Of a DNA stretch of 58,230 bases, positions 22,575 through 56,678 are shown piece after piece (position 1 is the first letter of the stretch; each line of letters starts with the position of its first letter). Source of the stretch: a virus. Its lineage: Duplodnaviria; Caudoviricetes. The notes under the pieces were generated by a model. That model ran no database searches. It saw only the letters and a list, made by a program, of their open reading frames with translations, and was not told where the DNA came from. The translations under genes and the position numbers were made by a program. The stretch is from the IMG/VR virus record IMGVR_UViG_3300009034_000044, positions 1 to 58,230 of that record, one strand, 5' to 3'.

Positions 22575-23579
22575 TTATAGTGCTGTTACTGCACATTCAA
22601 GTCTTGCCATCCACGCATCATTAAGAATAAGTGCTGTCTGCATGGTCTTCCAACCAATACTTCCTCTCTGTCCTAAAGGGTCAGACTTAGAAGGTGTTGG
22701 ATTAATAACCGTAGGTGCGATAGCAAATTTACCCTTAAGGGCTATAACACAATAAGCGTTTCTTGCGATATAAAGAACTGGATAAACATCAGCACTTACA
22801 CCAGTTGTAGAAACCATTGCTACACCACTACCAGCATATGCTCCACCAGTATCAGCCCAAGGCTCAAAAATCTGAGTTAATAGATACCTACAATTTTCAA
22901 CTGCTCCAACTTCCATCTCATAAGGAGTTACCTGACCATAATCTTTTACATCTATAAATCCAGGTATTGCTCTAATATCAGATTCCATATCGGTATGTGC
23001 AATAGCTATATAAGAAGGTAGCACAGCTTCAGTATTGAAGTTCGGAGTTGACCTAACAATCTGTGTTATTTGCATAGCATATTGTTTCTTAAATGCCCTT
23101 GTAATAGCTCTTTGCTTTGCAAGGGATATGGGTACATTAACATGACTTCTCTGAGTACCATTAGCCCAAAATACGTTAGTTCCAGCTTTTATATAACCAA
23201 ACCTAACAGTTTCGATTGTCATAGCAGCCTGTTCACCAAGTAAACCAGTGAACTCTTTAAGAACAGGGTCTTCATGAGTATCAGCTACTATATCGGTAAT
23301 CTCAATAATACTACCATACTGTTTAAGAATAGCAGTAATATCTACATAATTAGGCTTGATGCTTGTAGGGGTTACACCCTCAACAAGCGGAGTTGTTGCC
23401 AATGGAAGATGCTCGTACCTACGAAACTTCATTGACTGTGTTTTATGCATAGGTAATTCCTTAGCTTGTCCGAATTTCTCGATAACAAGATAAGGCATAC
23501 CACGTTTTAAAAGTTCAACCACTACATATGCAGCAGTTCTTGGAGAAATATCTCCGTATAGGGTTACTGTTCCTGCCAT
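22575..23579 (-). CDS. Major capsid protein, N4-gp56 family
   Basis: YGDISPRTAAY, KFGQ, KFRRY, PLVEGVTP, LKQYG, DTHEDPVL, SDPLGQRG.IGWK, ILNDAWMARLE motifs. Confidence 0.92.
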   Translation of the reverse strand: MAGTVTLYGDISPRTAAYVVVELLKRGMPYLVIEKFGQAKELPMHKTQSMKFRRYEHLPLATTPLVEGVTPTSIKPNYVDITAILKQYGSIIEITDIVADTHEDPVLKEFTGLLGEQAAMTIETVRFGYIKAGTNVFWANGTQRSHVNVPISLAKQRAITRAFKKQYAMQITQIVRSTPNFNTEAVLPSYIAIAHTDMESDIRAIPGFIDVKDYGQVTPYEMEVGAVENCRYLLTQIFEPWADTGGAYAGSGVAMVSTTGVSADVYPVLYIARNAYCVIALKGKFAIAPTVINPTPSKSDPLGQRGSIGWKTMQTALILNDAWMARLECAVTAL

Positions 23580-24918: not shown

Positions 24919-26901
24919 TTATTCTTTTACTGCCTTAAGGATATCCAAATCAGCATCTTTTAAGGTTTTTTCAGCTTTTGCTTCCATATGTTTAGCCTTA
25001 GCTAAGTCATATATAATTTTGGCTTCAGCAGTAGCTTTAGCTAAAGCCTCAGCGTTAGCATCCCTTTGTGATGCCAAAAATGCCTGGACTTCTTCTTCAG
25101 TTCTAATAAAATCTTTAGGCTTTAAATAAAATACTCTTGCTCTTTCCTTTAAAAATTCACCAGTTTTAACATAAACTCTTTCTTCTGGTGTTAAGGTAGT
25201 AGCAAAATAATTAAGGGCGTGCATTTTAAGTTCATTCAAAACAAGACTCGTAGAACCTTTAGCCTTTATATTAAAATCACCCTTAATATCTTCATTGGGA
25301 TTAAATTCCATATTCCAATTATATAATGCATATATAACTCCTTCATTACATTTGTCGTAAGATTTTATTATATCTCTAATACTAACAGTAGAAGATTGCC
25401 ATTTCAAAGATGCTTCTCCTAATGTTTGCTTTTGAGATTTGTCTGGTTCTGTATGCATCCAAAGTGGAATAGATATTTCTACGTCTCCTAAGTAAAATGC
25501 TTTCTCTAATATTGTAAGTAAATCTGCTATATGAGAATTAAAGGTAACTGGTCTTACTGCTGGTGATTGAGCTTCTGCGAGCCTACCTCCTCTTTTCCAA
25601 ATTCTGTCAGGAGCTACATCTTCAATATCTTCATCGGGAGATAGTAAGTCTGTATTAACTTCCATCATAGCACCAGAAACCTTAGCTGCATTATTTAACG
25701 TAGCTCTCATAGCACCACAAATAGTTAACTGAGTGTCTCTAATTATTTTTGGTAATCCAGTTCCAAATATACTTGTTTCATCCTTATCATAATAAAATAA
25801 AAAATAAGGTAAGTGTTTTACTGGTAAAGTACCATGAGAAATTTTTATAACCTTACTTCCAATTATCCAAATATTTACAAGAAATTCTATATCTAATTGG
25901 TCGTCAGGAATATCCTTGCCAGCTTTTCTTAAATCTTCTCCGTCTATAAATCCCCACCTTTCCAGTATTTCATATTTTCCTATGCGTGTTTCTTGGCTCT
26001 TTGCCTTGTCTATAGTTTCAAGTTGCAGTTCCCAATCTTTATAAGTAGCATTACCCTTTGGATGGTCTTTTATATATTCACGAATAGTATCTGAGAAAAA
26101 ATCTTCTCTTAGGGTCAGTTTCCTTAATTGATGTTTATTTAATATATGCCTTTCCCATACAAAATCACAATCTTCAAGTTCACATGCTGACATATCTGGA
26201 TACCAATCCCAAACTCTAACATTTGCAATATCAGGTAATCTCTTACTAACAATAATTGATTTCCATCCCTCTGTCGTTTCTTCGTAATCACCTTCTTCTA
26301 TTGTTTGTGATAAGACTCCTTTTGCTATTCCAGTTCCAAAACGAACCCCACTTTTTATTATATCTTCTTGTGTTTCGTTATATTTTATTTCAGTTAATTG
26401 GTCTTCAATTTGCTTATCCATCTTTTCGCAACGTGCTTTTGCATATTCATTAATTTTTTCTTCTAATTCTTCTTTTGTAACTTCTTCTGGTTTTACCATA
26501 GTACCAGTAGATTGAGTTTGCATTAATGCTTTTTGTTGTTTTATTGCTGTTAAAGTTTCAACAATTTCTCCTAAAACTGCCTTTGATAAGTTTGGTTTAG
26601 GAGTTGGTTCTATTGCGTAATTTTTATCGTTTTCGGGTAATAGCATAGAATTTAACTTTGAACGTAATATAATTTCCTTAGAACGTGTATATTTAGGATA
26701 AACCCTTGATGCATTTTTAGGTATCTTCAAAAGAACATCAGGGTCATATAGTCCCTTACTTTGTCTTAAGTTTTCCAACCATTCATTTTCCTTATCCTTT
26801 CTCCACTTTTCATTATCATCAAATTCACTTTCATATTTCAATCCTAAAGCTGATATAATCGTTTGAATATCATAACCTAATTCCTTAAATTCCAATTTCA
26901 T
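24919..26901 (-). CDS. Portal protein
   Basis: 660 aa between terminase and scaffold; IEDQL, GTGIAKG, WDWYPD, SIFGTGLP, LYNWNMEF..IKGDF..KAKGS motifs. Confidence 0.85.
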   Translation of the reverse strand: MKLEFKELGYDIQTIISALGLKYESEFDDNEKWRKDKENEWLENLRQSKGLYDPDVLLKIPKNASRVYPKYTRSKEIILRSKLNSMLLPENDKNYAIEPTPKPNLSKAVLGEIVETLTAIKQQKALMQTQSTGTMVKPEEVTKEELEEKINEYAKARCEKMDKQIEDQLTEIKYNETQEDIIKSGVRFGTGIAKGVLSQTIEEGDYEETTEGWKSIIVSKRLPDIANVRVWDWYPDMSACELEDCDFVWERHILNKHQLRKLTLREDFFSDTIREYIKDHPKGNATYKDWELQLETIDKAKSQETRIGKYEILERWGFIDGEDLRKAGKDIPDDQLDIEFLVNIWIIGSKVIKISHGTLPVKHLPYFLFYYDKDETSIFGTGLPKIIRDTQLTICGAMRATLNNAAKVSGAMMEVNTDLLSPDEDIEDVAPDRIWKRGGRLAEAQSPAVRPVTFNSHIADLLTILEKAFYLGDVEISIPLWMHTEPDKSQKQTLGEASLKWQSSTVSIRDIIKSYDKCNEGVIYALYNWNMEFNPNEDIKGDFNIKAKGSTSLVLNELKMHALNYFATTLTPEERVYVKTGEFLKERARVFYLKPKDFIRTEEEVQAFLASQRDANAEALAKATAEAKIIYDLAKAKHMEAKAEKTLKDADLDILKAVKE

Positions 26902-28315: not shown

Positions 28316-29728
28316 TTATAGTCCTACATGCGTTGGAGGCTCATATGGTGGTCTCCGTCTTGTTGGTCTTACATTAGCCATTCTTTTAATTTGTTCTTGT
28401 ATATATAATGCTGCATATTGCAAGGCATCATGTATATGGCTATAAAAGTTTTTCTTAGGATTTCCCAACTTATCTTTTATATATCCCTTTCCAAATCCAT
28501 TTCTTATTGTCTCACATTCTTCAGCATTTAATTGTAAAGACGGAACTCCCAAATCACATAATTGAGTAAGGAAATGCTCAACAGCACCTACTCTCGCAAC
28601 AGGAGAATTTGTTCGTGCTGGCTCAATAATAAAACCAGGAAATTCTTCGTGTAAAATATTATAACAAGTAATCTCATTTGCTGCACTTCTATCCCTACCT
28701 GTGGGGTCTCCAGTTATTATTATCTTATATCCATGATATTTAGTTGCAATCAATGGCTTTAAAATATTTCTTACAAACCTCTGTACTCCCATTGATGTAC
28801 TTACATATTCCTCAAGAACATTAAAGTGACCCATTGGTGTAACTTGTACAATTACAGCACATGGGGTTAATCCAAAATCCATTCCTATTATTAATGGTCT
28901 TCCAGGTACAGCATATAGTTTTGATTTTGCAGTATGAAGACTATCGGAATATGTATGCTCATATACAAGTTCGCCTTCTCTTACAAATCCATATTCATTG
29001 TCTATATATACCTTAATCCAATCAGGGTCTTTTCCTTGTATTAAGTTTTCATAATAATTTTCTGGCAACCATATTACATTTTCTGCTTCTGGAGAACGAC
29101 CAGATGGTTGAATAAACTGCTCTGCATTTTCTGGCTTATCTTTCTCAAAATAATTAAACCACCAACTACCTTCCTCTGGAGAATTTGTATCCAATATTAA
29201 TTGTGGTAAGGTACATCCACCATCTTTCTTTGCTGGAAATCTTCCAAGGGCAGGGTCTAAATTATCAAAAATAACTTTTGGAATTTCCCTTGCTTCATTT
29301 ATCCAAGCACCAGACAACTCCATAGACAAAAGATTTCTAACGTCTTTTGGTTTATCTAATGCTCTAAAACTAAATTCTATCTCAGTATCTTCAAATGCAG
29401 TTATGTAATAATCGTGGGTTGTAATTTTAAAAGTTCCAAAGTGTTCTTCTGGCAACCATTCAAGAACTTTTCTTATAGAACTATCTTTAAGTTGAGCATA
29501 AGTATTTCTCACAATAGCCCATCTTGACCTTCTAATCCCATCCCTGGGGTCGGGTGCTTGATTAAGTCCATTTTTTAATAGTTTCTGAACACAAACAGAA
29601 GACTTTCCAGAACCCCTACAGCCACGAACTGCAATTATTCTTTTATCGCAATTATAAAAACGATATAGCGTTGGAGCATCTTCAAAAGAATAATTAATCT
29701 CCACTGGTTTCTGACTCAATTCTTCCAT
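28316..29728 (-). CDS. terL: Terminase large subunit
   Basis: Walker A GCRGSGKS, RSRWAIVRNTY.QL, Walker B GAWINE, coupling DTN, nuclease IGMDFG and HIHDALQY. Confidence 0.93.
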   Translation of the reverse strand: MEELSQKPVEINYSFEDAPTLYRFYNCDKRIIAVRGCRGSGKSSVCVQKLLKNGLNQAPDPRDGIRRSRWAIVRNTYAQLKDSSIRKVLEWLPEEHFGTFKITTHDYYITAFEDTEIEFSFRALDKPKDVRNLLSMELSGAWINEAREIPKVIFDNLDPALGRFPAKKDGGCTLPQLILDTNSPEEGSWWFNYFEKDKPENAEQFIQPSGRSPEAENVIWLPENYYENLIQGKDPDWIKVYIDNEYGFVREGELVYEHTYSDSLHTAKSKLYAVPGRPLIIGMDFGLTPCAVIVQVTPMGHFNVLEEYVSTSMGVQRFVRNILKPLIATKYHGYKIIITGDPTGRDRSAANEITCYNILHEEFPGFIIEPARTNSPVARVGAVEHFLTQLCDLGVPSLQLNAEECETIRNGFGKGYIKDKLGNPKKNFYSHIHDALQYAALYIQEQIKRMANVRPTRRRPPYEPPTHVGL

Positions 29729-31427: not shown

Positions 31428-31667
31428 TTATTCATGTTCCATTAACCACGCCCTTATAAACTTATTAACTTCTTCTATCTTTTTTCTTAGTTCTCTTATG
31501 TCTTCTATTCTTGCATAATTAGTTAACATTTCTCTTTCTAATCTACTTAGTCCATTTGGTTTTTGCTTGTTAAATAAATTCTTTAATGCAATCTTAATTA
31601 TCTCCCAAGTTACAAGACCACCAAAAATCATTAACGCATAAGTAGCGTAGGTAATTGAATTATCCAT
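31428..31667 (-). CDS. Single-TM coiled-coil lysis-module protein
   Basis: N-terminal TM plus coiled coil; follows the endolysin. Confidence 0.5.
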   Translation of the reverse strand: MDNSITYATYALMIFGGLVTWEIIKIALKNLFNKQKPNGLSRLEREMLTNYARIEDIRELRKKIEEVNKFIRAWLMEHE

Positions 31668-32127
31668 GTAAAAAAATCTCCCTTTCTGCCCTTCTTCTCC
31701 TTAATAATCCCTTAACAATTCTACCACCAGCCCTACACCATCTTGGAAATTCATCAGCAGCAGATTCATATTCTCCCCTGTTTAGTTTCATCCTTAATGT
31801 GCTTCTCTGCAATGCTCCTGCTCCTAAGTTAAAAGTAAAACTTATAAGTGCATCACGTTGACCTTGAGACAAGGGAACTTTAATGTATCTCGTAACTGCG
31901 TATTCATATACTCGTATATCTTTTTTTATGAGAACATCACCTTCTATTTTATTCATTGGTTCTTTAAAGATTTCACCTACTCTTAGTGCATGACCATAAC
32001 CAATACTTTTATAACCACCCAAACATATATAAATATAAGCTGCAAACCCTTCAAATGATTTTATAAAGTTTGCTCCTGCTTGAGATATGGTTGTGTTGAT
32101 ATAATTGAAAATGGTAGATATGGTCAT
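31660..32127 (-). CDS. Endolysin, GH24 phage lysozyme
   Basis: IKSFEG..Y.C.GGY.SIGYGH, DALISFTFNLG, STL, AADEF.RW, GL.RRR.AE. Confidence 0.92.
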   Translation of the reverse strand: MTISTIFNYINTTISQAGANFIKSFEGFAAYIYICLGGYKSIGYGHALRVGEIFKEPMNKIEGDVLIKKDIRVYEYAVTRYIKVPLSQGQRDALISFTFNLGAGALQRSTLRMKLNRGEYESAADEFPRWCRAGGRIVKGLLRRRRAEREIFLHG

Positions 32128-35131: not shown

Positions 35132-35341
35132 TTAAGTACCTCCTTTAATTTTATCAAGTGGAATCGCTTTTTCCCAACGCCATCCACATTCACAAACTAC
35201 ATCGTAGTTGTAATATATACTTCTATGTATTTGTCTTTTACAAAGTGGACATGTCATTATAACATTTATTCCAATTTGCATATTACACGATTCATGTACT
35301 TCCTTACAAATCTTTTTTGTAAATTCTATTACTCTACTCAT
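35132..35341 (-). CDS. Small Zn-finger protein
   Basis: CPLC...CECG. Confidence 0.55.
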   Translation of the reverse strand: MSRVIEFTKKICKEVHESCNMQIGINVIMTCPLCKRQIHRSIYYNYDVVCECGWRWEKAIPLDKIKGGT

Positions 35342-35344
35342 TTA

Positions 35345-35593
35345 TTAAACCTTACCATCTATAATCTTAATTACATCTTTTAAAAGAAACCTACATTTAA
35401 TTTCTATTAAATCTTTCATGGCATCTATAGCTCTATCCCTATCTGTGTCCGTAGCCATGAGACCTCCAAACCTGAAACAATAAATATAGTATTCGTTATG
35501 TAATTTTCGGATTTTGATTTTGAACTTACGCCCAAGAACGGTTATATAGATATGTTCTATTTGACAGGGTTTATCGTTAGGGATGTCCTTCAT
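35345..35593 (-). CDS. Small HicB-like protein, first gene of the leftward transcript
   Basis: YYIYCFRFGGLMATDTDRDRAIDAMKDLIE resembles HicB N-domain; no SD, follows the promoter closely. Confidence 0.45.
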   Translation of the reverse strand: MKDIPNDKPCQIEHIYITVLGRKFKIKIRKLHNEYYIYCFRFGGLMATDTDRDRAIDAMKDLIEIKCRFLLKDVIKIIDGKV

Positions 35594-35601
35594 AATACCT
35601 T

Positions 35602-35630
35602 ATTATAGCATATCCACAAAATATTTACAA
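35602..35630 (-). promoter_or_regulatory. Sigma70-type leftward promoter
   Basis: TTGTAA-17 bp-TATAAT with TG extension. Confidence 0.7.
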
Positions 35631-35728
35631 GTATTATTATAAGCGTATGTATGCACAACATGGGCATTGTAAACCTTTAAGGTTTCCGTTGTAAACCTTA
35701 TATCATATAAGTCAAAAACCATTTTCTT

Positions 35729-36083
35729 TACACACGTTTATGTGAAGTGTACCCGATATGGACATAAAATCAATAGGTTAAACGCTGCCTATATTTCAGT
35801 CATATATGTGAAAGCACCCGAAAACCCTGAAATATCAAGGAGTTACGGAGAAAATAACCTATTCCTATATATATCTTATTATAATATATATAGTATATAT
35901 AGGGATTAAAAACCTATTATAGCGTAAAGTATTGTTATTAAACGATTTACAGGCACAGTTCACACGTTTATGTGAATAACCTCAAGGGCTACAGAAGACT
36001 TCACCCATTTATGTGAAAACAGAGGGTATCGTAACTACTGGATATATAAGGGAGAATAGACCAACTTCAGCCATTTATGTGAA
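35729..36083. repeat. Five 18-bp quasi-palindromic iterons TTCAnnnRTWTATGTGAA with two IHF sites and an AT-rich inverted repeat
   Basis: Copies at ~35729 (degenerate 5' end), 35795, 35959, 36000, 36066; WATCAA-N4-TTR at 35768 and 35833; CCTATATATA/TATATATAGG at 35864-35903. Confidence 0.8.
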
Positions 36084-36349
36084 ATGGATATAAGAGTGTT
36101 TTTGACAAAATGGCTATTGCAAGTGAGGAGGACATAGATATGTAATCGCCCCCTCTTTTGAAAGCTACGCCCCCCTCCCCATGCAAAAAAATAAGTATTG
36201 TTTTTGACATCGTGACCATGCCTGAATTAATAAACATACTTAAAAAGGTAAATAATATATATGTTATATATACTCTTAAGGATAAATATAGTAATGATTA
36301 TATATACTATAAATACAGTAATTACGATTAATATAGTCAACCGTAAAGA

Positions 36350-36412
36350 TGGCATGGTTTATGCTAAGGTCATAGATTGTGATTTAAGTGGAATGATGAT
36401 TGCACACGTCAT
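36350..36412 (+). promoter_or_regulatory. Two tandem sigma54 -24/-12-like boxes
   Basis: TGGCATGGTTTATGCT (36350) and TGGAATGATGATTGCA (36389), GG-N10-GC, each followed by GTCATAGA. Confidence 0.5.
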
Positions 36413-36545
36413 AGACTACCAGAATGACCACATTCTTTCATTATTTTATTCTTTCAAGTAAGATTGTAAGACAGTAAGATTTATAACATACTGTAATTAT
36501 TCTATTATATAATGTTTATAATCTATTAATGATTTTATTATACTA

Positions 36546-36656
36546 TGTAATCGGTTACATATATTGTGTAATTCATTACATACTGTTTTATCCTTATATT
36601 ACAATCGGTTACGACATAGTGTGTAATTGGTTACATAGTCTATGTAATCCGTTACA
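36546..36656. promoter_or_regulatory. Four TGTAA-N4-TTACA palindromes (candidate enhancer/UAS)
   Basis: 36546, 36567, 36622, 36643: two pairs, each spaced 21 bp. Confidence 0.8.
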
Positions 36657-36702
36657 TAGTATACTTATGTCTTGATACTGGCGACAATAAAATATCCCAT
36701 GT

Positions 36703-36756
36703 TATCAAGAGGTTATCTATTTTGGCACAATAAATAATCTTGGCACGATGTTTGCT
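36703..36756 (+). promoter_or_regulatory. IHF site plus sigma54 promoter P1
   Basis: TATCAAGAGGTTA (36703-36715), then TGGCACGATGTTTGCT (36741-36756), a perfect TGGCACG-N4-TTGCT. Confidence 0.8.
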
Positions 36757-36786
36757 TACATAAATATAATGGAAGGTGGTGATAAA

Positions 36787-36987
36787 ATGAAGTATATATG
36801 GAATTACCGACATGATATTAAGGTCAATATATCAACCGTTAAGCAATTTACGGTTAGCGAGGTTTACTACGGAGCTAAAATAATTTATGAGGTTAGGGCA
36901 TGGTACAATACAAATGACTATCACACGATAGACAAATTTGAAAGTATAACGGATGCTTATGACCTTATAGACACGATAGCAATTTAA
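36787..36987 (+). CDS. First early gene, hypothetical (start MKYIW)
   Basis: GGAAGGTGG SD downstream of the predicted sigma54 start site. Confidence 0.6.
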   Translation: MKYIWNYRHDIKVNISTVKQFTVSEVYYGAKIIYEVRAWYNTNDYHTIDKFESITDAYDLIDTIAI

Positions 36988-37133
36988 TAAGGAGATTGAC
37001 AATATAACGGATGTTAAAATAGCGAAAGTATTTACTATAAATACTATTTATACTGTAAATATAATATAATGTATAGATACTCCATTAGTCGAACATTTAA
37101 TTTAAATGACTATGTAGTGGACTTCCAAAAGTA

Positions 37134-37219
37134 TGTAATAGATTACATATATTTTAATATAATTATTACTCATGTATTCTTTAATATCAAGGATTTGTCA
37201 ATCTGGCATGAAGTTTGCT
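37134..37219 (+). promoter_or_regulatory. UAS, IHF site and sigma54 promoter P2
   Basis: TGTAATAGATTACA (37134), TATCAAGGATTTG (37185-37197), TGGCATGAAGTTTGCT (37204-37219). Confidence 0.75.
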
Positions 37220-37231
37220 TATATAAATAAC

Positions 37232-37675
37232 ATGGATGTGAATACAGCTATAAAAACTCCGATTTTAACAGCATCACATGCTATGGAGATTATTGATTTA
37301 TTGTCTAAAGAGTTTGATATCGAGACACCTAAGTTAATAATGAAAGCTCATATATATACTTCTGCTGATTATGTAAATAATACCATTAAAATAGATAATA
37401 CAAAATATGGATACTTTCAATATGCATTGTCTATGGAAGATATTATTCTTCATGAGTTTACTCACATCTTAACGTGGGTGAAGAATAAAAATGATATGAT
37501 TAAAACTACTGGTAATTACTATGAAGGTTACAGAGTAAGATATTTACATCATGGTAAGGCATTTCAAAGAAATCTACTGTTAGTGATTAAAGCATGGTAT
37601 AAAGATATCAATAAATATAACTGGAAAAACGAATACATCGCCATTGCTAAAGCATATAAAAACAATAAAATTTAG
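37232..37675 (+). CDS. SprT-like zincin metalloprotease (probable near-leaderless start MDVNT)
   Basis: ILHEFTH...HHGKAF. Confidence 0.7.
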   Translation: MDVNTAIKTPILTASHAMEIIDLLSKEFDIETPKLIMKAHIYTSADYVNNTIKIDNTKYGYFQYALSMEDIILHEFTHILTWVKNKNDMIKTTGNYYEGYRVRYLHHGKAFQRNLLLVIKAWYKDINKYNWKNEYIAIAKAYKNNKI

Positions 37676-37689
37676 TGGAGGTTTAGTAT

Positions 37690-37947
37690 ATGTATATAGT
37701 GAAAAAAAGAAATGTCATTGTAGTGCATGATAAGAAATTTACTTATCATTTTATACTTAACAGTAAGAAATCAGATAACGGTTTTACTCATGGTTTTCTA
37801 CATGGTATAATAGACTATAAAAACAAGATATTCTATACCACTAAAGAAAATCACTTTTATAATAATGACATTATACGGAGGATGTACACAGTTGTAGAAT
37901 ATAACAAAATGAGATTGCTTGACCTATATAATAAAGGTTTAAAGTAG
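37690..37947 (+). CDS. Hypothetical protein
   Basis: GGAGG SD. Confidence 0.6.
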   Translation: MYIVKKRNVIVVHDKKFTYHFILNSKKSDNGFTHGFLHGIIDYKNKIFYTTKENHFYNNDIIRRMYTVVEYNKMRLLDLYNKGLK

Positions 37948-39134
37948 TGAAAATAACCTTTTGTCAATTCCATAACAACCTCATTAACGGAAGTTATCAA
38001 GATACTATAGCTGATAGATATTATAATGGTATGTATCAGTATAAGCACAATGATGGTTACTATAAAACCTCAGAGTTTTTTGAATTACCGTTATGGATAG
38101 CTGAAATTAATGGAAGTTTAACCAGTGGTTATGATACTGAATTATTAATAATTGATAACGTAGACAATGCCATAAATCGATTAAATAATAGTGGTAGTGA
38201 TTACATACTCTTTTCAGTATTGGATGTCAATAAAAGATATATTAAGGATATAATCAAAAGATATACTGGTAACGGTTTATTTTGTATTGGTGGCTATGTA
38301 GATTTTACATACTTCAACGGTTTATTGGTAAAGGTATTTAATACCGTTAAACAGTTTATTGAATCATTAGGTATAGAATACCACTATAACTTAGATTATA
38401 AGCTATTCAGAGGTTACAAGACAATACCACGTTTAACTTTAAGTTATGGATGCCTTAACAGATGTAAATTTTGTACCGTAGAAAAAACCATAACTGAGGT
38501 TACTATAGATAACATACTAAAACAAGTTAATGCATTTCATATACTTGATTTTAAATTGGTATATATAAATGATAAAACTTTTGGTCAAGCTAATAATTAC
38601 CATTTATTACATACATTATTTGAAATGATAAAAAGTTATAATAAAGAGTTTAAAGGTTTTATAATTCAAACTACATGTATACAGCTATTAGATATTAACT
38701 TTCAAAATATGCTCCATAGTGGTATTATATATGCTGTAGAAATTGGAATAGAAACATTTAACAATGACTTGTTATATAGTTTAGATAAACCTCAAACAGA
38801 AGATGTTATTATAGAAGCTATAGCAGTTTTAAAAGATAATAATGTCCATATCATACCTAACATTATAATAGGTATCATAAATGAAAATAGAGATACTTAT
38901 AATAAAACCCTTAACCTTATAAAACAGTATCAAGAGGATATATACTTTTTGAATATATATAATTTAGCTGTATATCTTGATACTCCACTTGCTAAGGACA
39001 TTAACGTACTAAACGACAATGACCTTAACGAAAACATAACCAATAAAAGTTTTTATACTGAAAAACAAATGGAAGATAACGAATACTTTTATAATGAAAT
39101 ATTTAAAATTGGTATAGAGATTTTAAACCGTTAA
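37947..39134 (+). CDS. Radical SAM enzyme with an N-terminal B12-binding-like domain
   Basis: RLTLSYGCLNRCKFC (CxxxCxxC), YINDKTF, IGIETF, NIIIGI; N-terminal FSVLD and IGG. Confidence 0.85.
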   Translation: MKITFCQFHNNLINGSYQDTIADRYYNGMYQYKHNDGYYKTSEFFELPLWIAEINGSLTSGYDTELLIIDNVDNAINRLNNSGSDYILFSVLDVNKRYIKDIIKRYTGNGLFCIGGYVDFTYFNGLLVKVFNTVKQFIESLGIEYHYNLDYKLFRGYKTIPRLTLSYGCLNRCKFCTVEKTITEVTIDNILKQVNAFHILDFKLVYINDKTFGQANNYHLLHTLFEMIKSYNKEFKGFIIQTTCIQLLDINFQNMLHSGIIYAVEIGIETFNNDLLYSLDKPQTEDVIIEAIAVLKDNNVHIIPNIIIGIINENRDTYNKTLNLIKQYQEDIYFLNIYNLAVYLDTPLAKDINVLNDNDLNENITNKSFYTEKQMEDNEYFYNEIFKIGIEILNR

Positions 39135-39431: not shown

Positions 39432-39710
39432 ATGAAAAGTTTTAAATTATATACAGAGCATAGAGATAACTTAATTGAGCTTGCAAGGTTTTATTTTAAT
39501 GAGTTTACAGTATATAATAAAACTGGTAATGATTCCATTGTTGGTTTATGGAATAATGAAATAGAGCAAACTTCCATAATAGAAATAATAATGAATGATA
39601 CTATAATTAATGAAAGTTTGATATGTAAGTTAATAAATGATATCAAAAGAGTAAATAATCAACAAATGGTATTACTAACTATAACAGATATGGAAGTTAT
39701 ATATGGATAA
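39432..39710 (+). CDS. Hypothetical protein (ferredoxin/PII-like fold)
   Basis: FTVY...GLW..EIEQTSIIEI...IKRVNNQQMVL. Confidence 0.55.
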   Translation: MKSFKLYTEHRDNLIELARFYFNEFTVYNKTGNDSIVGLWNNEIEQTSIIEIIMNDTIINESLICKLINDIKRVNNQQMVLLTITDMEVIYG

Positions 39711-40326
39711 CCTAATCAAAATATTTAATCAAGCTAACAGCTATGAAGTAGAAAAGGGTTTAACGTGGTATAGTGACGTTAATCAAACTTTAATAGAGCT
39801 TGCTAAAAAGTATGGCGTTAAACCTGAAATAGCACATGCAGTTTGTTCTGCATTATCGCCACGCTGTATATGGAATCAAAATTTGATAGATACTGAAAAG
39901 GTTTTAAGGTGGTATAAAGATAAAAAATCACTTAAACAAGGAATAGTAAATAAAACTTTACCATCTGTAACTACATATAAACGCAATCTTAAAAAAGCCA
40001 TAGATATATTAAAAACTGGTAACGTAGAAGTATTTAAAACTTGTAAAACTTTTAATTTCTTTAAAAATATAAGTGAACCATTTAATAATGATTATGTAAC
40101 GGTTGACGGTCACGCCATTAATGCTTACTATAATAAATTGGGTATTGTAGAAAATAAACATTTTACACCTAAATATTATAATGAGATAGCAACTAAATAT
40201 AAAAAAGGAGCTAAGAAATTTAATATATTAGCATGTCAATTTCAAGCTATAATCTGGTTAACATTTAAAAGAATACATAACATAAAAGTTAACTGGCGTG
40301 AATATCAAACCAATTTGCCATTTTAG
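39703..40326 (+). CDS. HhH-GPD-superfamily-like phage DNA-acting protein (DUF7178-like)
   Basis: GLTWY, SALSPR..W..N, KT.NF..NI, VTVDGHA, Y..IA, FQAIIW motifs. Confidence 0.65.
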   Translation: MDNLIKIFNQANSYEVEKGLTWYSDVNQTLIELAKKYGVKPEIAHAVCSALSPRCIWNQNLIDTEKVLRWYKDKKSLKQGIVNKTLPSVTTYKRNLKKAIDILKTGNVEVFKTCKTFNFFKNISEPFNNDYVTVDGHAINAYYNKLGIVENKHFTPKYYNEIATKYKKGAKKFNILACQFQAIIWLTFKRIHNIKVNWREYQTNLPF

Positions 40327-40621: not shown

Positions 40622-41230
40622 ATGGAGGATAGGCACATGTTACAAGAAATCATAGAAACTATATCAAATGGACATGTACCGTCATATTGGATTAATAACT
40701 ATGGTGTACCCACTAAAGGTAATTGTAGAATAGCACATATTGAAAACTGGTTAAAAAAGTTTTCTATAGAAATTGTTAACCCTAACATGCGAAATAAAAT
40801 TAACCCATCTTATTGTGGCGGTGTAATATACTTACCTGAAATAAATTATGTACCGAACATAGAACAATATTATATTGGAGCTTTTCACGAAATTATTCAC
40901 TATATCGGTGACATGAAGCACGACATTTATTTTAAAAATGCATGGAGTAACGAAAGACAACATGCTCAAGAAGAAATAATAGCACAGATTGGAGCTTTAA
41001 TTTTAGTTAAGAAGTTTAATTTAAAATTACAAAAAGAAACTTTAATAAATGAATATGCTTATCTTAAATTGTATCTCAAAAAATATACCTTACCCAATCT
41101 AAAGCAATATTTATTTTTTGATAGAGATGGGAACGAATATTATATAGAAGACTTAAGAAAATGTTATAGCATAGCTCTTGAGAGAATAAATTATATTATC
41201 CTTAATCAAGATACGGTGACATATACATGA
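40622..41230 (+). CDS. ArdC-like / polyvalent zincin metallopeptidase (anti-restriction candidate)
   Basis: IYLP...YY..AFHEIIHY.G...AQEEIIAQIGA...AYL..Y. Confidence 0.65.
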   Translation: MEDRHMLQEIIETISNGHVPSYWINNYGVPTKGNCRIAHIENWLKKFSIEIVNPNMRNKINPSYCGGVIYLPEINYVPNIEQYYIGAFHEIIHYIGDMKHDIYFKNAWSNERQHAQEEIIAQIGALILVKKFNLKLQKETLINEYAYLKLYLKKYTLPNLKQYLFFDRDGNEYYIEDLRKCYSIALERINYIILNQDTVTYT

Positions 41231-47344: not shown

Positions 47345-47830
47345 CTAACAGTTATCGAGTTTGCTTAAATGTTTTGGTCTTTTGGGAGCAGTTATGTTTA
47401 ATTCTTTTAGTTTTGATAATAACTGTTCCTCTATTTTTTTATATTTCAATTCAATATTAGTAGCAGAAGATTTACTTTCTTTATTTAATTTATTAAATTT
47501 TTCCATTCCTATTTTTGCCACAATTAAACTCAATAAAGTTTCAGGTTCTTTCCTTAATCTCCAATGATGGCAATAGTAACATAGTTTCATTCCATTGTCA
47601 GGATTCCATCTTACATTCTTACCTTTATGAAATATATGGTGTGCATCCATCTTTCCTTCTATCTTCTTACACCATTGACATCCTTCATCCCTTACATGGA
47701 TAAGTAATTTCCACAATTTATCGAGCCACTTCTCATAAACCTGTTTTAAGCTCTTAACATTATTAACTTTACCTCTTTTACTAACAATAACTAATTCTTC
47801 AAGAGCTTTTTTTAATTTACTTTTTACCAT
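47345..47830 (-). CDS. NinG/HNH-like endonuclease
   Basis: VRDEGCQWC...DAHHI...RWNPDNG..LCYYCH. Confidence 0.75.
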   Translation of the reverse strand: MVKSKLKKALEELVIVSKRGKVNNVKSLKQVYEKWLDKLWKLLIHVRDEGCQWCKKIEGKMDAHHIFHKGKNVRWNPDNGMKLCYYCHHWRLRKEPETLLSLIVAKIGMEKFNKLNKESKSSATNIELKYKKIEEQLLSKLKELNITAPKRPKHLSKLDNC

Positions 47831-48906: not shown

Positions 48907-49368
48907 TCATACTAACCCCCTTGTTGATTTAATAAGTTTCTCTAAGTATTCTTCTGCTCCTTCTTCTGTTTTAAAAACAACATGAGAGGCTTCTAAGGGA
49001 AAGCAATGCTGGTGGATGTTATTATCTTCCATAGCAAGAATAATATGCTTACCAAAAATAGCTGCTGCTGTTATTTCTGATACACATCCAATAGAAACTT
49101 CATCAGCTTCCATTAGATTACAGTAAACAATATCTGTTATTCTAACCATCCAGATATCTCTACCAAAAATAGCATGATTAGTAGAACAGGGAACATTATC
49201 ATATCCTACAGATTTAAACTCTTTCTCACATCTTAATTCTTCTTTTCCTACCATTGGATGTAGAGTTTCCACTCCTAATGCAGCAAATTTCTTAGTAATT
49301 CTTTTGTAGTATTTTACCACTTCATTAAAACTTCTACCTGAGATGGGTCTGGCAAAATAAATTTTCAT
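48907..49368 (-). CDS. Nucleoside 2-deoxyribosyltransferase-like / nucleotide N-hydrolase
   Basis: KIYFARPISG, IFGRDIWMV...DIV, SIGCVSEI.AA. Confidence 0.7.
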   Translation of the reverse strand: MKIYFARPISGRSFNEVVKYYKRITKKFAALGVETLHPMVGKEELRCEKEFKSVGYDNVPCSTNHAIFGRDIWMVRITDIVYCNLMEADEVSIGCVSEITAAAIFGKHIILAMEDNNIHQHCFPLEASHVVFKTEEGAEEYLEKLIKSTRGLV

Positions 49369-51456: not shown

Positions 51457-52143
51457 TTAGGAACGACTTTTGAGGTATTCATGTAGGTATCCACTTGAAT
51501 TAAATATGATTCCATTTAATGCATCTTCTATAGATACTTGAGTCCAGTTTTCTGGAAATACAGCAAGTGGTTTAGTGCGTATATGAGTTACCTCTCCTTT
51601 ATCTGTTTTTTCTCTATAAACATAATACCCTCTATGTAAAGCCCACCAATCTGCAAAATGTCTCCATGCAGATTTCATATATACTTTTTTATCTATTCCT
51701 TTTTGCCAATTATCACTATCCCTGTATGTTCCGTCTGATTGTATTCTATGTTTATGTAAATACTTAGCATAAGAATGTAAGGTCAATGGAGATAAAAATC
51801 CATCATAATCTAATTTGGTCGTGTCTTTATCTCTGGTTGCTCCAGTTGAAAATTTTCTCATACCTATATAATCTCTATCTCCTCCAGTTTGATATTTTCT
51901 TGTATCGGAAATAGGAGTATAGTCATATTCCATTTCTAATTCTCTACAGTTAAATGATGTATTTTGACAGTTAGGGCAAAATTTAGGAGCATTATATATA
52001 TCACTAATAATGCCTAATGTGCAGGATGTACATATATACAATGCCTCTCTTATGTTAGACTTACCCTTAGCTACAGAGCTACATTGCCCACATAAATCAC
52101 TTTTTTCTTCACATTGTTTAACTTTACACAATCTACATCTCAT
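51457..52143 (-). CDS. dATP/dGTP diphosphohydrolase domain protein (DUF5664-like) with N-terminal Zn fingers
   Basis: RKFSTGATRD..KLDYDGFLSP...YLHKH...DSDNWQKGI...Y.KSAWRH. Confidence 0.75.
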   Translation of the reverse strand: MRCRLCKVKQCEEKSDLCGQCSSVAKGKSNIREALYICTSCTLGIISDIYNAPKFCPNCQNTSFNCRELEMEYDYTPISDTRKYQTGGDRDYIGMRKFSTGATRDKDTTKLDYDGFLSPLTLHSYAKYLHKHRIQSDGTYRDSDNWQKGIDKKVYMKSAWRHFADWWALHRGYYVYREKTDKGEVTHIRTKPLAVFPENWTQVSIEDALNGIIFNSSGYLHEYLKSRS

Positions 52144-54930: not shown

Positions 54931-56061
54931 CTATCTAAAGTCTATTGGCACAGCAAGAGACGATATAACCCTTTTCTTTGATGAGCCAAATAACCACTGA
55001 CAGGGCTGCGTTGATGTTCCATATAACTTAAAAGCATAATCATCGTGAGGTATCCAGCATCCATTAACCAATAACTCTGCGTTTGGTGAGAGAGCTATTC
55101 TGTCTGAACGATGTCTGTGACCAATAATATAAAGATTATATCCATCTGGTAAATTTATAAGTAACTCTTTGGCTTTACGTTCAGCATAGGAAGTGGTGTA
55201 CCCTTTGATAGTTTCTCCATGAGACATAAATATTTTATGTCCATAGTTATCTACGCTATAAAATCTACTATCAGGGATGTCAACCTTAATATTGCTATTA
55301 CCCTCAAGAGTCATTCCAAGTATTCTATATAAATGATATTCAAAGTTATTCTCCACAGGTTCTTCCTCTCTGGCATTTGTAACGCTTCTACCATGATTTC
55401 CCACTACACATTTAACTCTTGTTTCTGGAAAGTATTTAGATAAAATATTAATCATATCTGCTAACTCTGCTATTGCACTCCAAATTTGCTTTCCCACTGG
55501 CATTGAAATCATATTTTTTTGTCCCTCAAAAATCCTATCATTATCCACAATATCTCCAAGCAAAAAGACATTCAATGCTTCAAAATAATATCCGTTCTTC
55601 CACAGAGTAAGTAATCTCATTACACTTTCCAAATATAGTTTTTGAAAATCTAATCTTATTTCATTATTATATGTAATTATTTTCTGATTGTTTCTGGTAT
55701 CATACCATTCATTTACCTTCCCTATGTGCATATCAGATATAACAAGATTAAGTATTTCCTTTGACTTTTCTTTATTGTAGTTCTGTTTATATAAGGGAAA
55801 CCTTTTTTGAAGATAATCATTGGAAACCAATTCCTTTAATGTGGCTATAAATTCTTCTGTAGAAAGAGAAGGAACTATAGATTTTTTGAACTCAGAAGGG
55901 AGAGCCTTGTCTATAGTTTTATGTTCCTTAAGTCTTCTTATCTTGCCCACAACAGAATCAAGAGTTCTATTTAGAGTTTTTGCCATTTCTTGTGGACTTA
56001 ACTTTCCTAAGTTTTTTTCAAGATATTCAATTTCTTCTTCAATCCAAATATCTTTTACCAT
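54931..56061 (-). CDS. Calcineurin-like metallophosphoesterase with N-terminal HTH
   Basis: SDMHIG, LGDIVD, GNHG, SHG, GHRH. Confidence 0.85.
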   Translation of the reverse strand: MVKDIWIEEEIEYLEKNLGKLSPQEMAKTLNRTLDSVVGKIRRLKEHKTIDKALPSEFKKSIVPSLSTEEFIATLKELVSNDYLQKRFPLYKQNYNKEKSKEILNLVISDMHIGKVNEWYDTRNNQKIITYNNEIRLDFQKLYLESVMRLLTLWKNGYYFEALNVFLLGDIVDNDRIFEGQKNMISMPVGKQIWSAIAELADMINILSKYFPETRVKCVVGNHGRSVTNAREEEPVENNFEYHLYRILGMTLEGNSNIKVDIPDSRFYSVDNYGHKIFMSHGETIKGYTTSYAERKAKELLINLPDGYNLYIIGHRHRSDRIALSPNAELLVNGCWIPHDDYAFKLYGTSTQPCQWLFGSSKKRVISSLAVPIDFR

Positions 56062-56678
56062 TTAAAATCCTCCCATTTAGTTCCTGAATATCTCTGCCAT
56101 ATAAGGGCATCGAGTTCAGCAACAGTTAGATTATATGCTTTAGCTATATTTTTAAATCTTACTTCATAAAAAAGATATTCATATTTGCATGTTGCATATC
56201 GAGTAGTAAAACCTAAAAATTTTAATATATGAGTATCAATAATGGCTAAGTCTTTATCACCTAAATTTCTAAGAAAATGAGATGCAGCCTTATAACCTAA
56301 GCCCTTTACTTCCTTAACTAAATATTCACGTTTATCATATGCAGAACATTCATTGCAAATAACAATATCATATATTATATCGAATTTTCTTTTCATCTCT
56401 ATGAGATATTTGGCTTTTTGATTGTAGAACCTTACTGGTTTAAGTATATCCAAAAAAAATTCCATTTCAAAATTACCAATATCCCTTGCGAGATAATAAA
56501 ATCCGATATCCTGCAACCTGTCTATAACTTTTCTATTATTTTTAAAGGTAGTTTGTGGAGCAGTAATACAGAAACATAAATCATAAAATATTTCTACTTT
56601 GGTTTTAGGTTTACCAAAGTTTTTAAAGGTTGCCTTAAGTCCTTCTCTTTCTTTTCTGGTTATTTTAAGTTCATGCAT
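56055..56678 (-). CDS. ogg: 8-oxoguanine DNA glycosylase/AP lyase (Ogg2-type)
   Basis: LCFCIT, VRFYNQKA.Y, REYLVKEVKGLGYKAASHFLRNLG (catalytic Lys), LAIIDTHIL (Asp), ELDALIW. Confidence 0.85.
   Translation of the reverse strand: MHELKITRKEREGLKATFKNFGKPKTKVEIFYDLCFCITAPQTTFKNNRKVIDRLQDIGFYYLARDIGNFEMEFFLDILKPVRFYNQKAKYLIEMKRKFDIIYDIVICNECSAYDKREYLVKEVKGLGYKAASHFLRNLGDKDLAIIDTHILKFLGFTTRYATCKYEYLFYEVRFKNIAKAYNLTVAELDALIWQRYSGTKWEDFKW

Follow-up and report, generated by a model that had tools for sequence, protein, structure and literature searches.

Candidate sigma-54 promoters with enhancer-like upstream sites at the head of a rightward gene block in a Caudoviricetes phage

The RNA polymerase holoenzyme with sigma-54 forms a closed complex at promoters marked by a GG element around position -24 and a GC element around -12; this complex is stable alone, and its opening needs an AAA+ activator. 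The textbook sigma-54 enhancer promoters with integration host factor (IHF) are glnAp2, nifH, Pu, and pspA. We analyzed a phage record of IMG/VR (IMGVR_UViG_3300009034_000044; Duplodnaviria, Caudoviricetes), a linear DNA of 58,230 bp whose completeness is 76% by CheckV; the whole record is referred to below as the window. Ahead of a rightward block of small open reading frames (ORFs), two exact sigma-54 boxes were found, P1 and P2 (table 1), which are very probably sigma-54 promoters heading that block, because their statistics, their placement, and their likeness to cellular promoters all point this way, and rival readers of the boxes are unsupported. Like the bacterial enhancer-type promoters glnAp2, nifH, Pu, and pspA, they have an exact -24 GG and -12 GC and carry repeats ~90-215 bp upstream, and at P1 these repeats form phased pairs with an IHF core between them and the box. 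In contrast to the bacterial examples, they occur in a phage and head genes of an early type, no activator gene lies nearby, an ATG stands at the predicted start, and the IHF core of P2 abuts the -24 element.

Phage promoters served by host sigma-54 are known; what we did not find in print is an enhancer-type layout of such promoters at early genes. In Pseudomonas phage YuA, the sigma-54 sites reportedly serve the region for particle formation and lysis. According to one source, YuA relies on sigma-70 as well as sigma-54 (PMC10914365, citing Ceyssens 2008). YuA reportedly has some of its transcription served by host sigma-54 and has no sigma-54 of its own, as would also hold for the window phage. 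The two phages are, however, unrelated; in the window the boxes head a small-ORF block opposite the structural genes, and we came across no mention of upstream activator or IHF sites for YuA. This was the only direct case found in the literature searched, which agrees with the original prediction, made from the letters of the window, that sigma-54-dependent phage promoters are rarely described. Moreover, one paper annotates a phage-borne sigma-54-type regulator in phi1422 (PMC3391216), a putative sigma-54-like protein is listed for a Pectobacterium phage (PMC7693777), and the resistance of rpoN mutants to some Salmonella phages is ascribed to indirect effects in another report (PMC8744999). 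In the main texts of open-access papers and bioRxiv preprints, we came across neither early phage genes that are preceded by promoters with upstream activator sites nor phage genomes with clusters of sigma-54 boxes.

The pattern TGGCAYG-N4-TTGCW has only two exact matches on both strands of the window, P1 and P2, whose originally predicted positions were confirmed by direct reading and by script. Comparison with shuffled controls, which had been proposed together with these positions, gave 0.02 expected matches, and none of 100 shuffles reached two. When one mismatch was allowed, four boxes were obtained; they span 870 bp and share the + strand, whereas 0.5 would be expected in the window (four were reached in 1 of 200 shuffles) and 0.006 in shuffles of the control region. 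The elements described here are located in the ~1.2-kb non-coding stretch 35594-36786 between divergent gene blocks and in the intergenic gap 36988-37231. At two mismatches the count fell to chance (10 vs. 9.5 expected in the window). Both P1 and P2 have a GG/GC spacing of exactly 10 bp in the frame of TGGCAC-N5-TTGCW, and both lie in non-coding DNA on the + strand, directly ahead of + strand ORFs at the strand switch. They share a 33-nt stretch with 85% identity (repeat family D5), and both are followed by TTTGCTTAYATAAATA. The promoter architecture that had been described as occurring twice (box, palindrome, and IHF core) was recovered at P1 and at P2, and the two near-boxes come in addition to it. 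These belong to a 27-nt repeat (family D7), stand 39 bp apart, and are each followed by GTCATAGA (window 36350-36415); they are located upstream of the TGTAA palindromes within a 66-amino-acid (aa) ORF (36261-36461) that is probably non-coding.

A further comparison used a degenerate 26-nt pattern that fits P1 as well as P2. It had no match in IMG/VR, and 27 loci containing it were found in metagenomes. At 18 of the 27, a same-strand ORF of at least 60 aa begins within 300 nt downstream. The N-termini of the downstream products, compared by eye without a family search, included several that were CoA-transferase-like and one each that was EtfB-like, DhaL-like, and pilin-like. By tblastn, the 27 loci were unrelated to the phage save for a marginal match of L147 to the DnaB-like ORF (30% identity, 104 aa, E = 2e-5). 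Judged by their sequence, these loci look like cellular sigma-54 promoters, an argument that rests on gene context, as the scan figure of 27 carries no formal expectation. Because the 26-nt pattern recurs ahead of cellular genes, the part of P1 and P2 that goes beyond the consensus (TTGCTTATATAAATA) appears to be a form of cellular sigma-54 promoters. As a separate observation, four of the metagenome loci (L142, L151, L156, and L165) share a conserved leader of ~50 nt (AGTGTAAA...ATTACACTCTTGCTTTATGGAGTATATA), possibly an RNA element, ahead of a CoA-transferase-like gene. In L164 the promoter is the same, but the leader is more diverged and no downstream ORF was found within that locus.

Upstream of the boxes, the palindrome TGTAA-N4-TTACA recurs. 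Six exact matches were counted in the window against 0.20 expected, a number reached in 0 of 100 shuffles. Five of the six lie in the control region (36546, 36567, 36622, 36643, and 37134), for which shuffles of the region gave 0.008, and the sixth (50622) is within an ORF. With its flanks, the consensus reads TATGTAAY-NN-RTTACATA. The four palindromes in two pairs that had been noted upstream of P1 were confirmed, with centers at -214, -193, -138, and -117. Enhancers of AAA+ activators are inverted repeats some 80-200 bp ahead of the box, often in phased pairs. Inverted repeats stand at enhancer distance from both P1 and P2, and at P1 the members of each pair are phased by 21 bp, that is, two helical turns; P2 has a single site (-90). 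The degenerate partner that had been claimed for the latter at 37113 did not hold up, since 4 of its 10 specified bases are off and the 6 that are kept hardly go beyond a half-site.

Similar half-sites have been described in bacteria, where the TyrR site is TGTAAA-N6-TTTACA and the GcsR site is TGTAACG-N4-CGTTCCG (PMC4894688). TyrR-like sites share with the phage palindromes the half-site TGTAA/TTACA and the arrangement of several tandem sites upstream of a sigma-54 promoter. Provided that P1 and P2 are real promoters, it is slightly more likely than not, and the best reading at hand, that the palindromes are activator sites of an enhancer-binding protein, because of their distances, their two-turn spacing, their recurrence at both promoters, the IHF core at P1, and their TyrR-like half-site. 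We also considered LacI-type operators and rejected them, since the central CG that these keep is present in only one of the five palindromes.

IHF-consensus cores were found near both boxes (WATCAANNNNTTR at 36703 and 37185). Over the whole window such cores were not enriched (8 vs. 9.8 expected); four of the eight, all on the + strand, fall within 35768-37197, and shuffles of the region gave 0.11. The IHF site originally predicted at P1 stood, with its core between the palindromes and the box (-58), whereas the one predicted at P2 conforms to the consensus but abuts the -24 element (-39). A second palindrome family, TTCACNC-N5-TGTGAA, occupies the left side of the control region, with five sites at one mismatch or fewer against 0.03 in region shuffles. 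This family may be a control site for late or leftward transcription (the structural operon) or an origin.

Table 1. Coordinates of the promoter elements and neighboring genes in the window
Feature	Position	Strand	Sequence or remark
P1, exact sigma-54 -24/-12 box	36741-36756	+	TGGCACGATGTTTGCT; GG 36742-3, GC 36754-5; predicted start ~36767-36769
P2, exact sigma-54 -24/-12 box	37204-37219	+	TGGCATGAAGTTTGCT; predicted start ~37230-37232
Near-box, 1 mismatch	36350-36365	+	TGGCATGGTTTATGCT; GG-N10-GC spacing intact
Near-box, 1 mismatch	36389-36404	+	TGGAATGATGATTGCA; GG-N10-GC spacing intact
Distal palindrome pair	36546-36580		TGTAATCGGTTACA at 36546, TGTAATTCATTACA at 36567; 21 bp apart; centers -214, -193 from predicted P1 start
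Degenerate palindrome	36600-36613		TACAATCGGTTACG; 3 of 10 specified bases off
Proximal palindrome pair	36622-36656		TGTAATTGGTTACA at 36622, TGTAATCCGTTACA at 36643; 21 bp apart; centers -138, -117 (P1)
P2 palindrome	37134-37147		TGTAATAGATTACA; center ~-90 from predicted P2 start
IHF-consensus core, P1	36703-36715	+	TATCAAGAGGTTA; center ~-58 from predicted P1 start, between palindromes and box
IHF-consensus core, P2	37185-37197	+	TATCAAGGATTTG; center ~-39 (P2), ends 6 bp ahead of box
IHF-consensus cores beside second palindrome family	35768-35845	+	AATCAATAGGTTA at 35768, TATCAAGGAGTTA at 35833
Second palindrome family TTCACNC-N5-TGTGAA	35729-36083		Five copies: 35729, 35795, 35959, 36000, 36066
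First rightward ORF	36769-36987	+	72 aa from ATG 36769; 66 aa from Shine-Dalgarno-led ATG 36787
HEFTH-motif ORF, putative zincin peptidase	37232-37675	+	147 aa
Radical SAM protein	37947-39134	+	395 aa; rightward block
DUF7178	39703-40326	+	Rightward block
Zincin MPTase-PolyVal protein	40622-41230	+	Rightward block
Capsid protein	22575-23579		Leftward block
SU10-type portal	24919-26901		Leftward block
Terminase_3 protein	28316-29728		Leftward block
T4-type lysozyme	31660-32127		Leftward block

Considering that a sigma-54 promoter needs an activator, the window was searched for one. No match to Sigma54_activat (PF00158) was obtained in all six frames at E <= 1, as had been noted from the sequence, and no sigma-54 DNA-binding domain (Sigma54_DBD) was found in the phage record. 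Twenty small ORFs (19 rightward and 1 leftward, 35132-35341) were compared with Pfam; none had a match at the curated cut-off, and the weak matches included no DNA-binding domain. Neither an integrase (PF00589) nor a Cro-type helix-turn-helix (HTH_3, PF01381) was detected in the window at E <= 0.1. A lambdoid switch has adjacent repressor and Cro-type HTH genes and usually an integrase; this module was not found in the window, and the lambdoid-operator reading of the palindromes is thereby weakened.

Boxes of the same kind were also found in other phages. A scan of IMG/VR seeded with the terminase returned only five loci (38-40% identity), and one of these records, G001 (97% complete, GC content 0.54), has a 640-bp non-coding stretch with four exact TGGCACG-N4-TTGC boxes distributed over both strands, along with two exact 17-nt repeats 21 bp apart (palindrome form TATGCCGTCCTTGGGCA). 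G001 was rejected as a relative because BLAST of all ORFs left the terminase alone in common; it is a parallel, not a case of conservation. A scan of IMG/VR with its box form gave at least 115 loci (L169-L283), whose counts are biased by the selection for the box pattern and some of which are mutually related. Among the matches listed, 43 of 115 had 2-9 exact TGGCAY-N5-TTGC boxes within 1 kb, and the presence of a second exact box at this distance is beyond chance despite the biased and partly related sample. The boxes were co-oriented in 17 of these 43 loci, while the rest had mixed strands and some formed dense arrays. In L218 (328-509), nine boxes alternate in strand over ~200 bp, and in L223 (4787-4915), six boxes follow each other with a 26-bp period; L172 (12283-12692) and L269 (655-848) are further clustered examples. 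Box arrays in these loci may be decoys for the sigma-54 polymerase.

A parallel in layout is G412 (IMG/VR, 100% complete), which has eight exact TGGCAY-N5-TTGC boxes in ~410 bp, the first of them ~70 bp ahead of a leftward gene, and beside them two pairs of GGAAYTCGCAGTTCY palindromes (four sites) with a spacing of 23 bp. Read from its sequence, the plan of G412 is the same as that of the window, and its site sequence is different. The Sigma54_activat domain was found in none of five box-cluster records searched, two of which are 99-100% complete, and the near-complete G001 (97%), G412 (100%), and G413 (99%) all lacked it. When all ORFs of these three phages and of the window were compared with each other by BLAST, no protein was common to all four, and the only clear match of the window was the terminase. 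These three phages and the 43 of 115 listed loci thus resemble the window in having several exact boxes within 1 kb of non-coding DNA, with no activator domain in the records searched, and G001 and G412 also have phage-specific repeat pairs 21-23 bp apart. They are unlike the window in that their boxes are often on both strands and sometimes in dense arrays, that their hosts are GC-richer, and that only the terminase is in common. It is conceivable, although doubtful, that the control regions of many uncultivated phages are served by host sigma-54 without a phage-encoded activator gene, by means of copied host enhancers, an unrecognized type of activator, or arrays that soak up sigma-54. The parallels suggest that such a strategy, or some related use of sigma-54 boxes, is widespread, and the window has a fair chance of being one example of it.

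Given which motifs are present, how far they exceed chance, where they lie, and that no activator domain was found in the window, we infer binding, looping, a host-encoded activator, and early timing, as follows. P1 and P2 would be tandem promoters read by host RNA polymerase with sigma-54 and would head the block at ~36.8-47.4 kb. A dimeric AAA+ enhancer-binding protein would sit on the 14-bp palindromes TGTAAY-NN-RTTACA, assemble into the active ring, and contact the polymerase through a loop of the DNA, and at P1 the DNA would be bent by an IHF-type protein at ~-58. Transcripts would begin ~12 nt past the -12 GC, at, or 2 nt ahead of, an in-frame ATG (36769 and 37232). The activator would be a host protein, which is the simplest source because these would be the promoters of the first genes, and the onset of the phage program would be tied to a host signal. 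We give this explanation as a whole (sigma-54 promoters, enhancer palindromes, and a host activator gating early genes) a probability of about 40%. If it were true, the phage program would start only in cells of a particular physiological state, because sigma-54 promoters give no transcripts before an ATPase under signal control has acted on them. In that case, the loss of rpoN or of one activator would block the phage, so that both conditional infection and resistance could arise in a simple way.

Several observations weigh against this explanation. Because of the 33-nt repeat, P1 and P2 count as a single event followed by duplication and are not independent of each other. The IHF core of P2 overlaps the expected footprint of the polymerase, which is an atypical position, and may be non-functional. 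The phage palindromes are 14 bp long vs. 18 bp for the TyrR type, with half-sites 4 bp closer, which implies another dimer geometry, and no TyrR-like protein is linked to the phage. As the record is 76% complete, a phage activator may sit in the missing part. No close relative in which the elements could be compared was found in the searched collections. Moreover, a search of cellular genomes for TGTAA-N4-TTACA beside sigma-54 promoters, by which the original prediction proposed to name the activator, gave nothing. Of the genome loci with paired palindromes (21 bp apart), which numbered at least 120 and were dominated by one unrelated Rhizobiaceae site, none of the 120 listed had a box within 500 bp. 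The palindrome was present within 300 bp upstream of 0 of the 27 cellular-looking promoters, and the palindrome-gap-box pattern was missing from all of 5 genomes and from all of 401 sampled genomes of the class to which the Cellvibrio record G006 belongs. These scans of cellular DNA are samples, and the host may lie outside them. Comparisons based on the endolysin, DUF7178, and Ogg indicated no host, which would have to possess sigma-54, IHF, and a matching activator. The original prediction is partly supported, namely as to the boxes, the enhancer distances, the IHF core of P1, and the absence of Sigma54_activat from the window; the role of the palindromes as activator sites is weakened by a motif that was found beside no cellular sigma-54 box in these samples, and the host origin of the activator by a record of only 76% completeness. 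Apart from this, the Rhizobiaceae site itself (TGTAAACCTTTACA-N7-TGTAAAGGTTTACA) is conserved in many Rhizobium, Agrobacterium, and Shinella genomes (genome loci L019-L138), with no box within 500 bp, and is presumably the operator pair of some regulator that is unrelated to the phage.

Other explanations keep the sigma-54 promoters and change the rest. The palindromes could be operators of a phage regulator (e.g., a repressor for early shut-off) or iterons of an origin, and the activator would then act elsewhere or from solution. Generally, phage operators and origins, too, often consist of 14-bp palindromes arranged as phased pairs, and the 1.2-kb non-coding hub, with its second palindrome family and several IHF-type cores, is origin-like. 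Sigma-54 activators without a DNA-binding domain do exist, and the failure of the motif to appear beside cellular sigma-54 promoters in our scans also fits here. Nevertheless, the palindrome lies upstream of both boxes at enhancer distances, G412 has the same paired-palindrome layout by its boxes, and the searches brought to light neither HTH_3 and integrase in the window nor, among the 20 small ORFs compared with Pfam, a recognizable domain for DNA binding, so we consider such a role for the palindromes unlikely. Alternatively, the activator might be encoded by the phage, in the missing ~24% or in a form that the Pfam Sigma54_activat model does not see, and might be injected with the DNA, without any gating by the host. 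An incomplete linear record leaves room for such a gene, and the phi1422 annotation is of this kind. The palindromes also differ from phage to phage (TGTAAY-NN-RTTACA here, GGAAYTCGCAGTTCY in G412, TATGCCGTCCTTGGGCA in G001), as would fit co-evolving phage factors. A phage-encoded activator is quite unlikely all the same, considering that the three near-complete box-cluster phages lack Sigma54_activat, that no protein is common to them and the window, and that promoters of the first genes could not await a phage product unless it were injected.

It is also possible to doubt that the boxes are promoters at all. A duplicated 33-nt segment might fit the consensus by chance, and sigma-70-type promoters or a phage polymerase would then serve the block instead. 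In favor of this, P1 and P2 derive from the same duplicated segment, so only a single event is required, and 18 sigma-70-like hexamer pairs occur within 35300-37700, some of them on the + strand. However, this count is at chance (20.0 expected), a single exact box is already expected only ~0.02 times per window, two near-boxes adjoin, and the extended 26-nt form recurs ahead of cellular genes. A T7-type RNA polymerase (PF00940) had no match in the window in a search that was run without a positive control, and the 1,624-aa virion protein matched solely phrog_11358, a family of unknown function. Boxes without sigma-54 function are thus very unlikely. P1 and P2 need not be the sole early promoters, a question that the chance-level sigma-70-like count settles neither way. 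N4-type hairpin promoters, which need a virion or T7-like RNA polymerase, were likewise considered, and no polymerase was found in the same PF00940 search without a control or by the family match of the virion protein. Finally, the boxes might mainly be decoys or roadblocks, at which sigma-54 polymerase is held in closed complexes and drawn off the host regulons. Closed complexes are stable without an activator, the dense arrays of L218 and L223 are too tight for all of their boxes to be promoters, and the activator domain was missing from all five box-cluster records searched. For the window, a decoy function is nevertheless highly improbable: just two exact and two near boxes are present, they are co-oriented and promoter-like, with an ATG 14 nt past the -12 GC, and a few sites per phage copy would be a weak sink early in infection.

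Turning to the genes behind the candidate promoters, both P1 (36769) and P2 (37232) have an ATG whose distance from the C of the -12 GC is 14 nt and which shares the reading frame of the next ORF. No Shine-Dalgarno sequence was seen by inspection ahead of the candidate starts 37172 and 37232 of the P2 ORF, and the mRNAs of P1 and P2 may be leaderless or nearly so. The first rightward ORF had no family match. The product of the 147-aa ORF behind P2 had been called a SprT-like protease; its HExxH motif is present, but the match to the SprT-like Pfam model is sub-threshold (E = 0.029; 14.7 bits vs. a cut-off of 25.6). The radical SAM gene that had been placed downstream of the promoters was found in the rightward block. 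This block (~36.8-47.4 kb) comprises ~40 small ORFs; it contains the radical SAM, DUF7178, and zincin MPTase-PolyVal genes, and beyond the last of these are ~30 small ORFs without a family, the last near 47368.

The window is AT-rich (GC content 0.26-0.37 per 2-kb window), and its GC skew flips sign at ~36 kb and ~48 kb. The leftward block 1-35,593 consists of structural and lysis genes. Its lysozyme has a single domain of 155 aa, which only hints at a diderm host. A third block at ~47.3-58.2 kb, also leftward, carries genes of DNA metabolism (DnaB-like helicase, RNA ligase, Ogg, and nucleoside deoxyribosyltransferase). Relatives of the phage were sought in several collections. Comparison by blastn with 50,697 phage records gave 0 matches, and no relative was found when IMG/VR was scanned with the HExxH ORF or when IMG/VR and metagenomes were scanned with the radical SAM protein. 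The best terminase and capsid matches (35-44% identity) were to Pseudomonadota phages, such as Rollin, vB_Pun_Y3, DES1, and StenR_269. Rollin, vB_Pun_Y3, and DES1, the closest isolates by capsid and terminase, have 0 exact sigma-54 boxes, and vB_Pun_Y3 has a lambdoid control module in their place.

Some minor observations concern the two leftward blocks. Five tRNA genes (Pro, His, Asp, Glu, and Tyr) lie at 1023-1992 on the - strand and are followed by a 90-nt Rfam match to tmRNA (72.4 bits vs. a gathering score of 47), which covers the model ends only and looks like a tRNA-like fragment or a mini-tmRNA. On the same strand, a nucleoside 2-deoxyribosyltransferase gene (48907-49368) is located near genes for an Ogg-type glycosylase (56055-56678) and for a product with a weak N-terminal match to dATP/dGTP diphosphohydrolase (51457-52143; 24 bits vs. 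a cut-off of 27). Together with the radical SAM gene at 37947-39134, this group may point to modified DNA bases.

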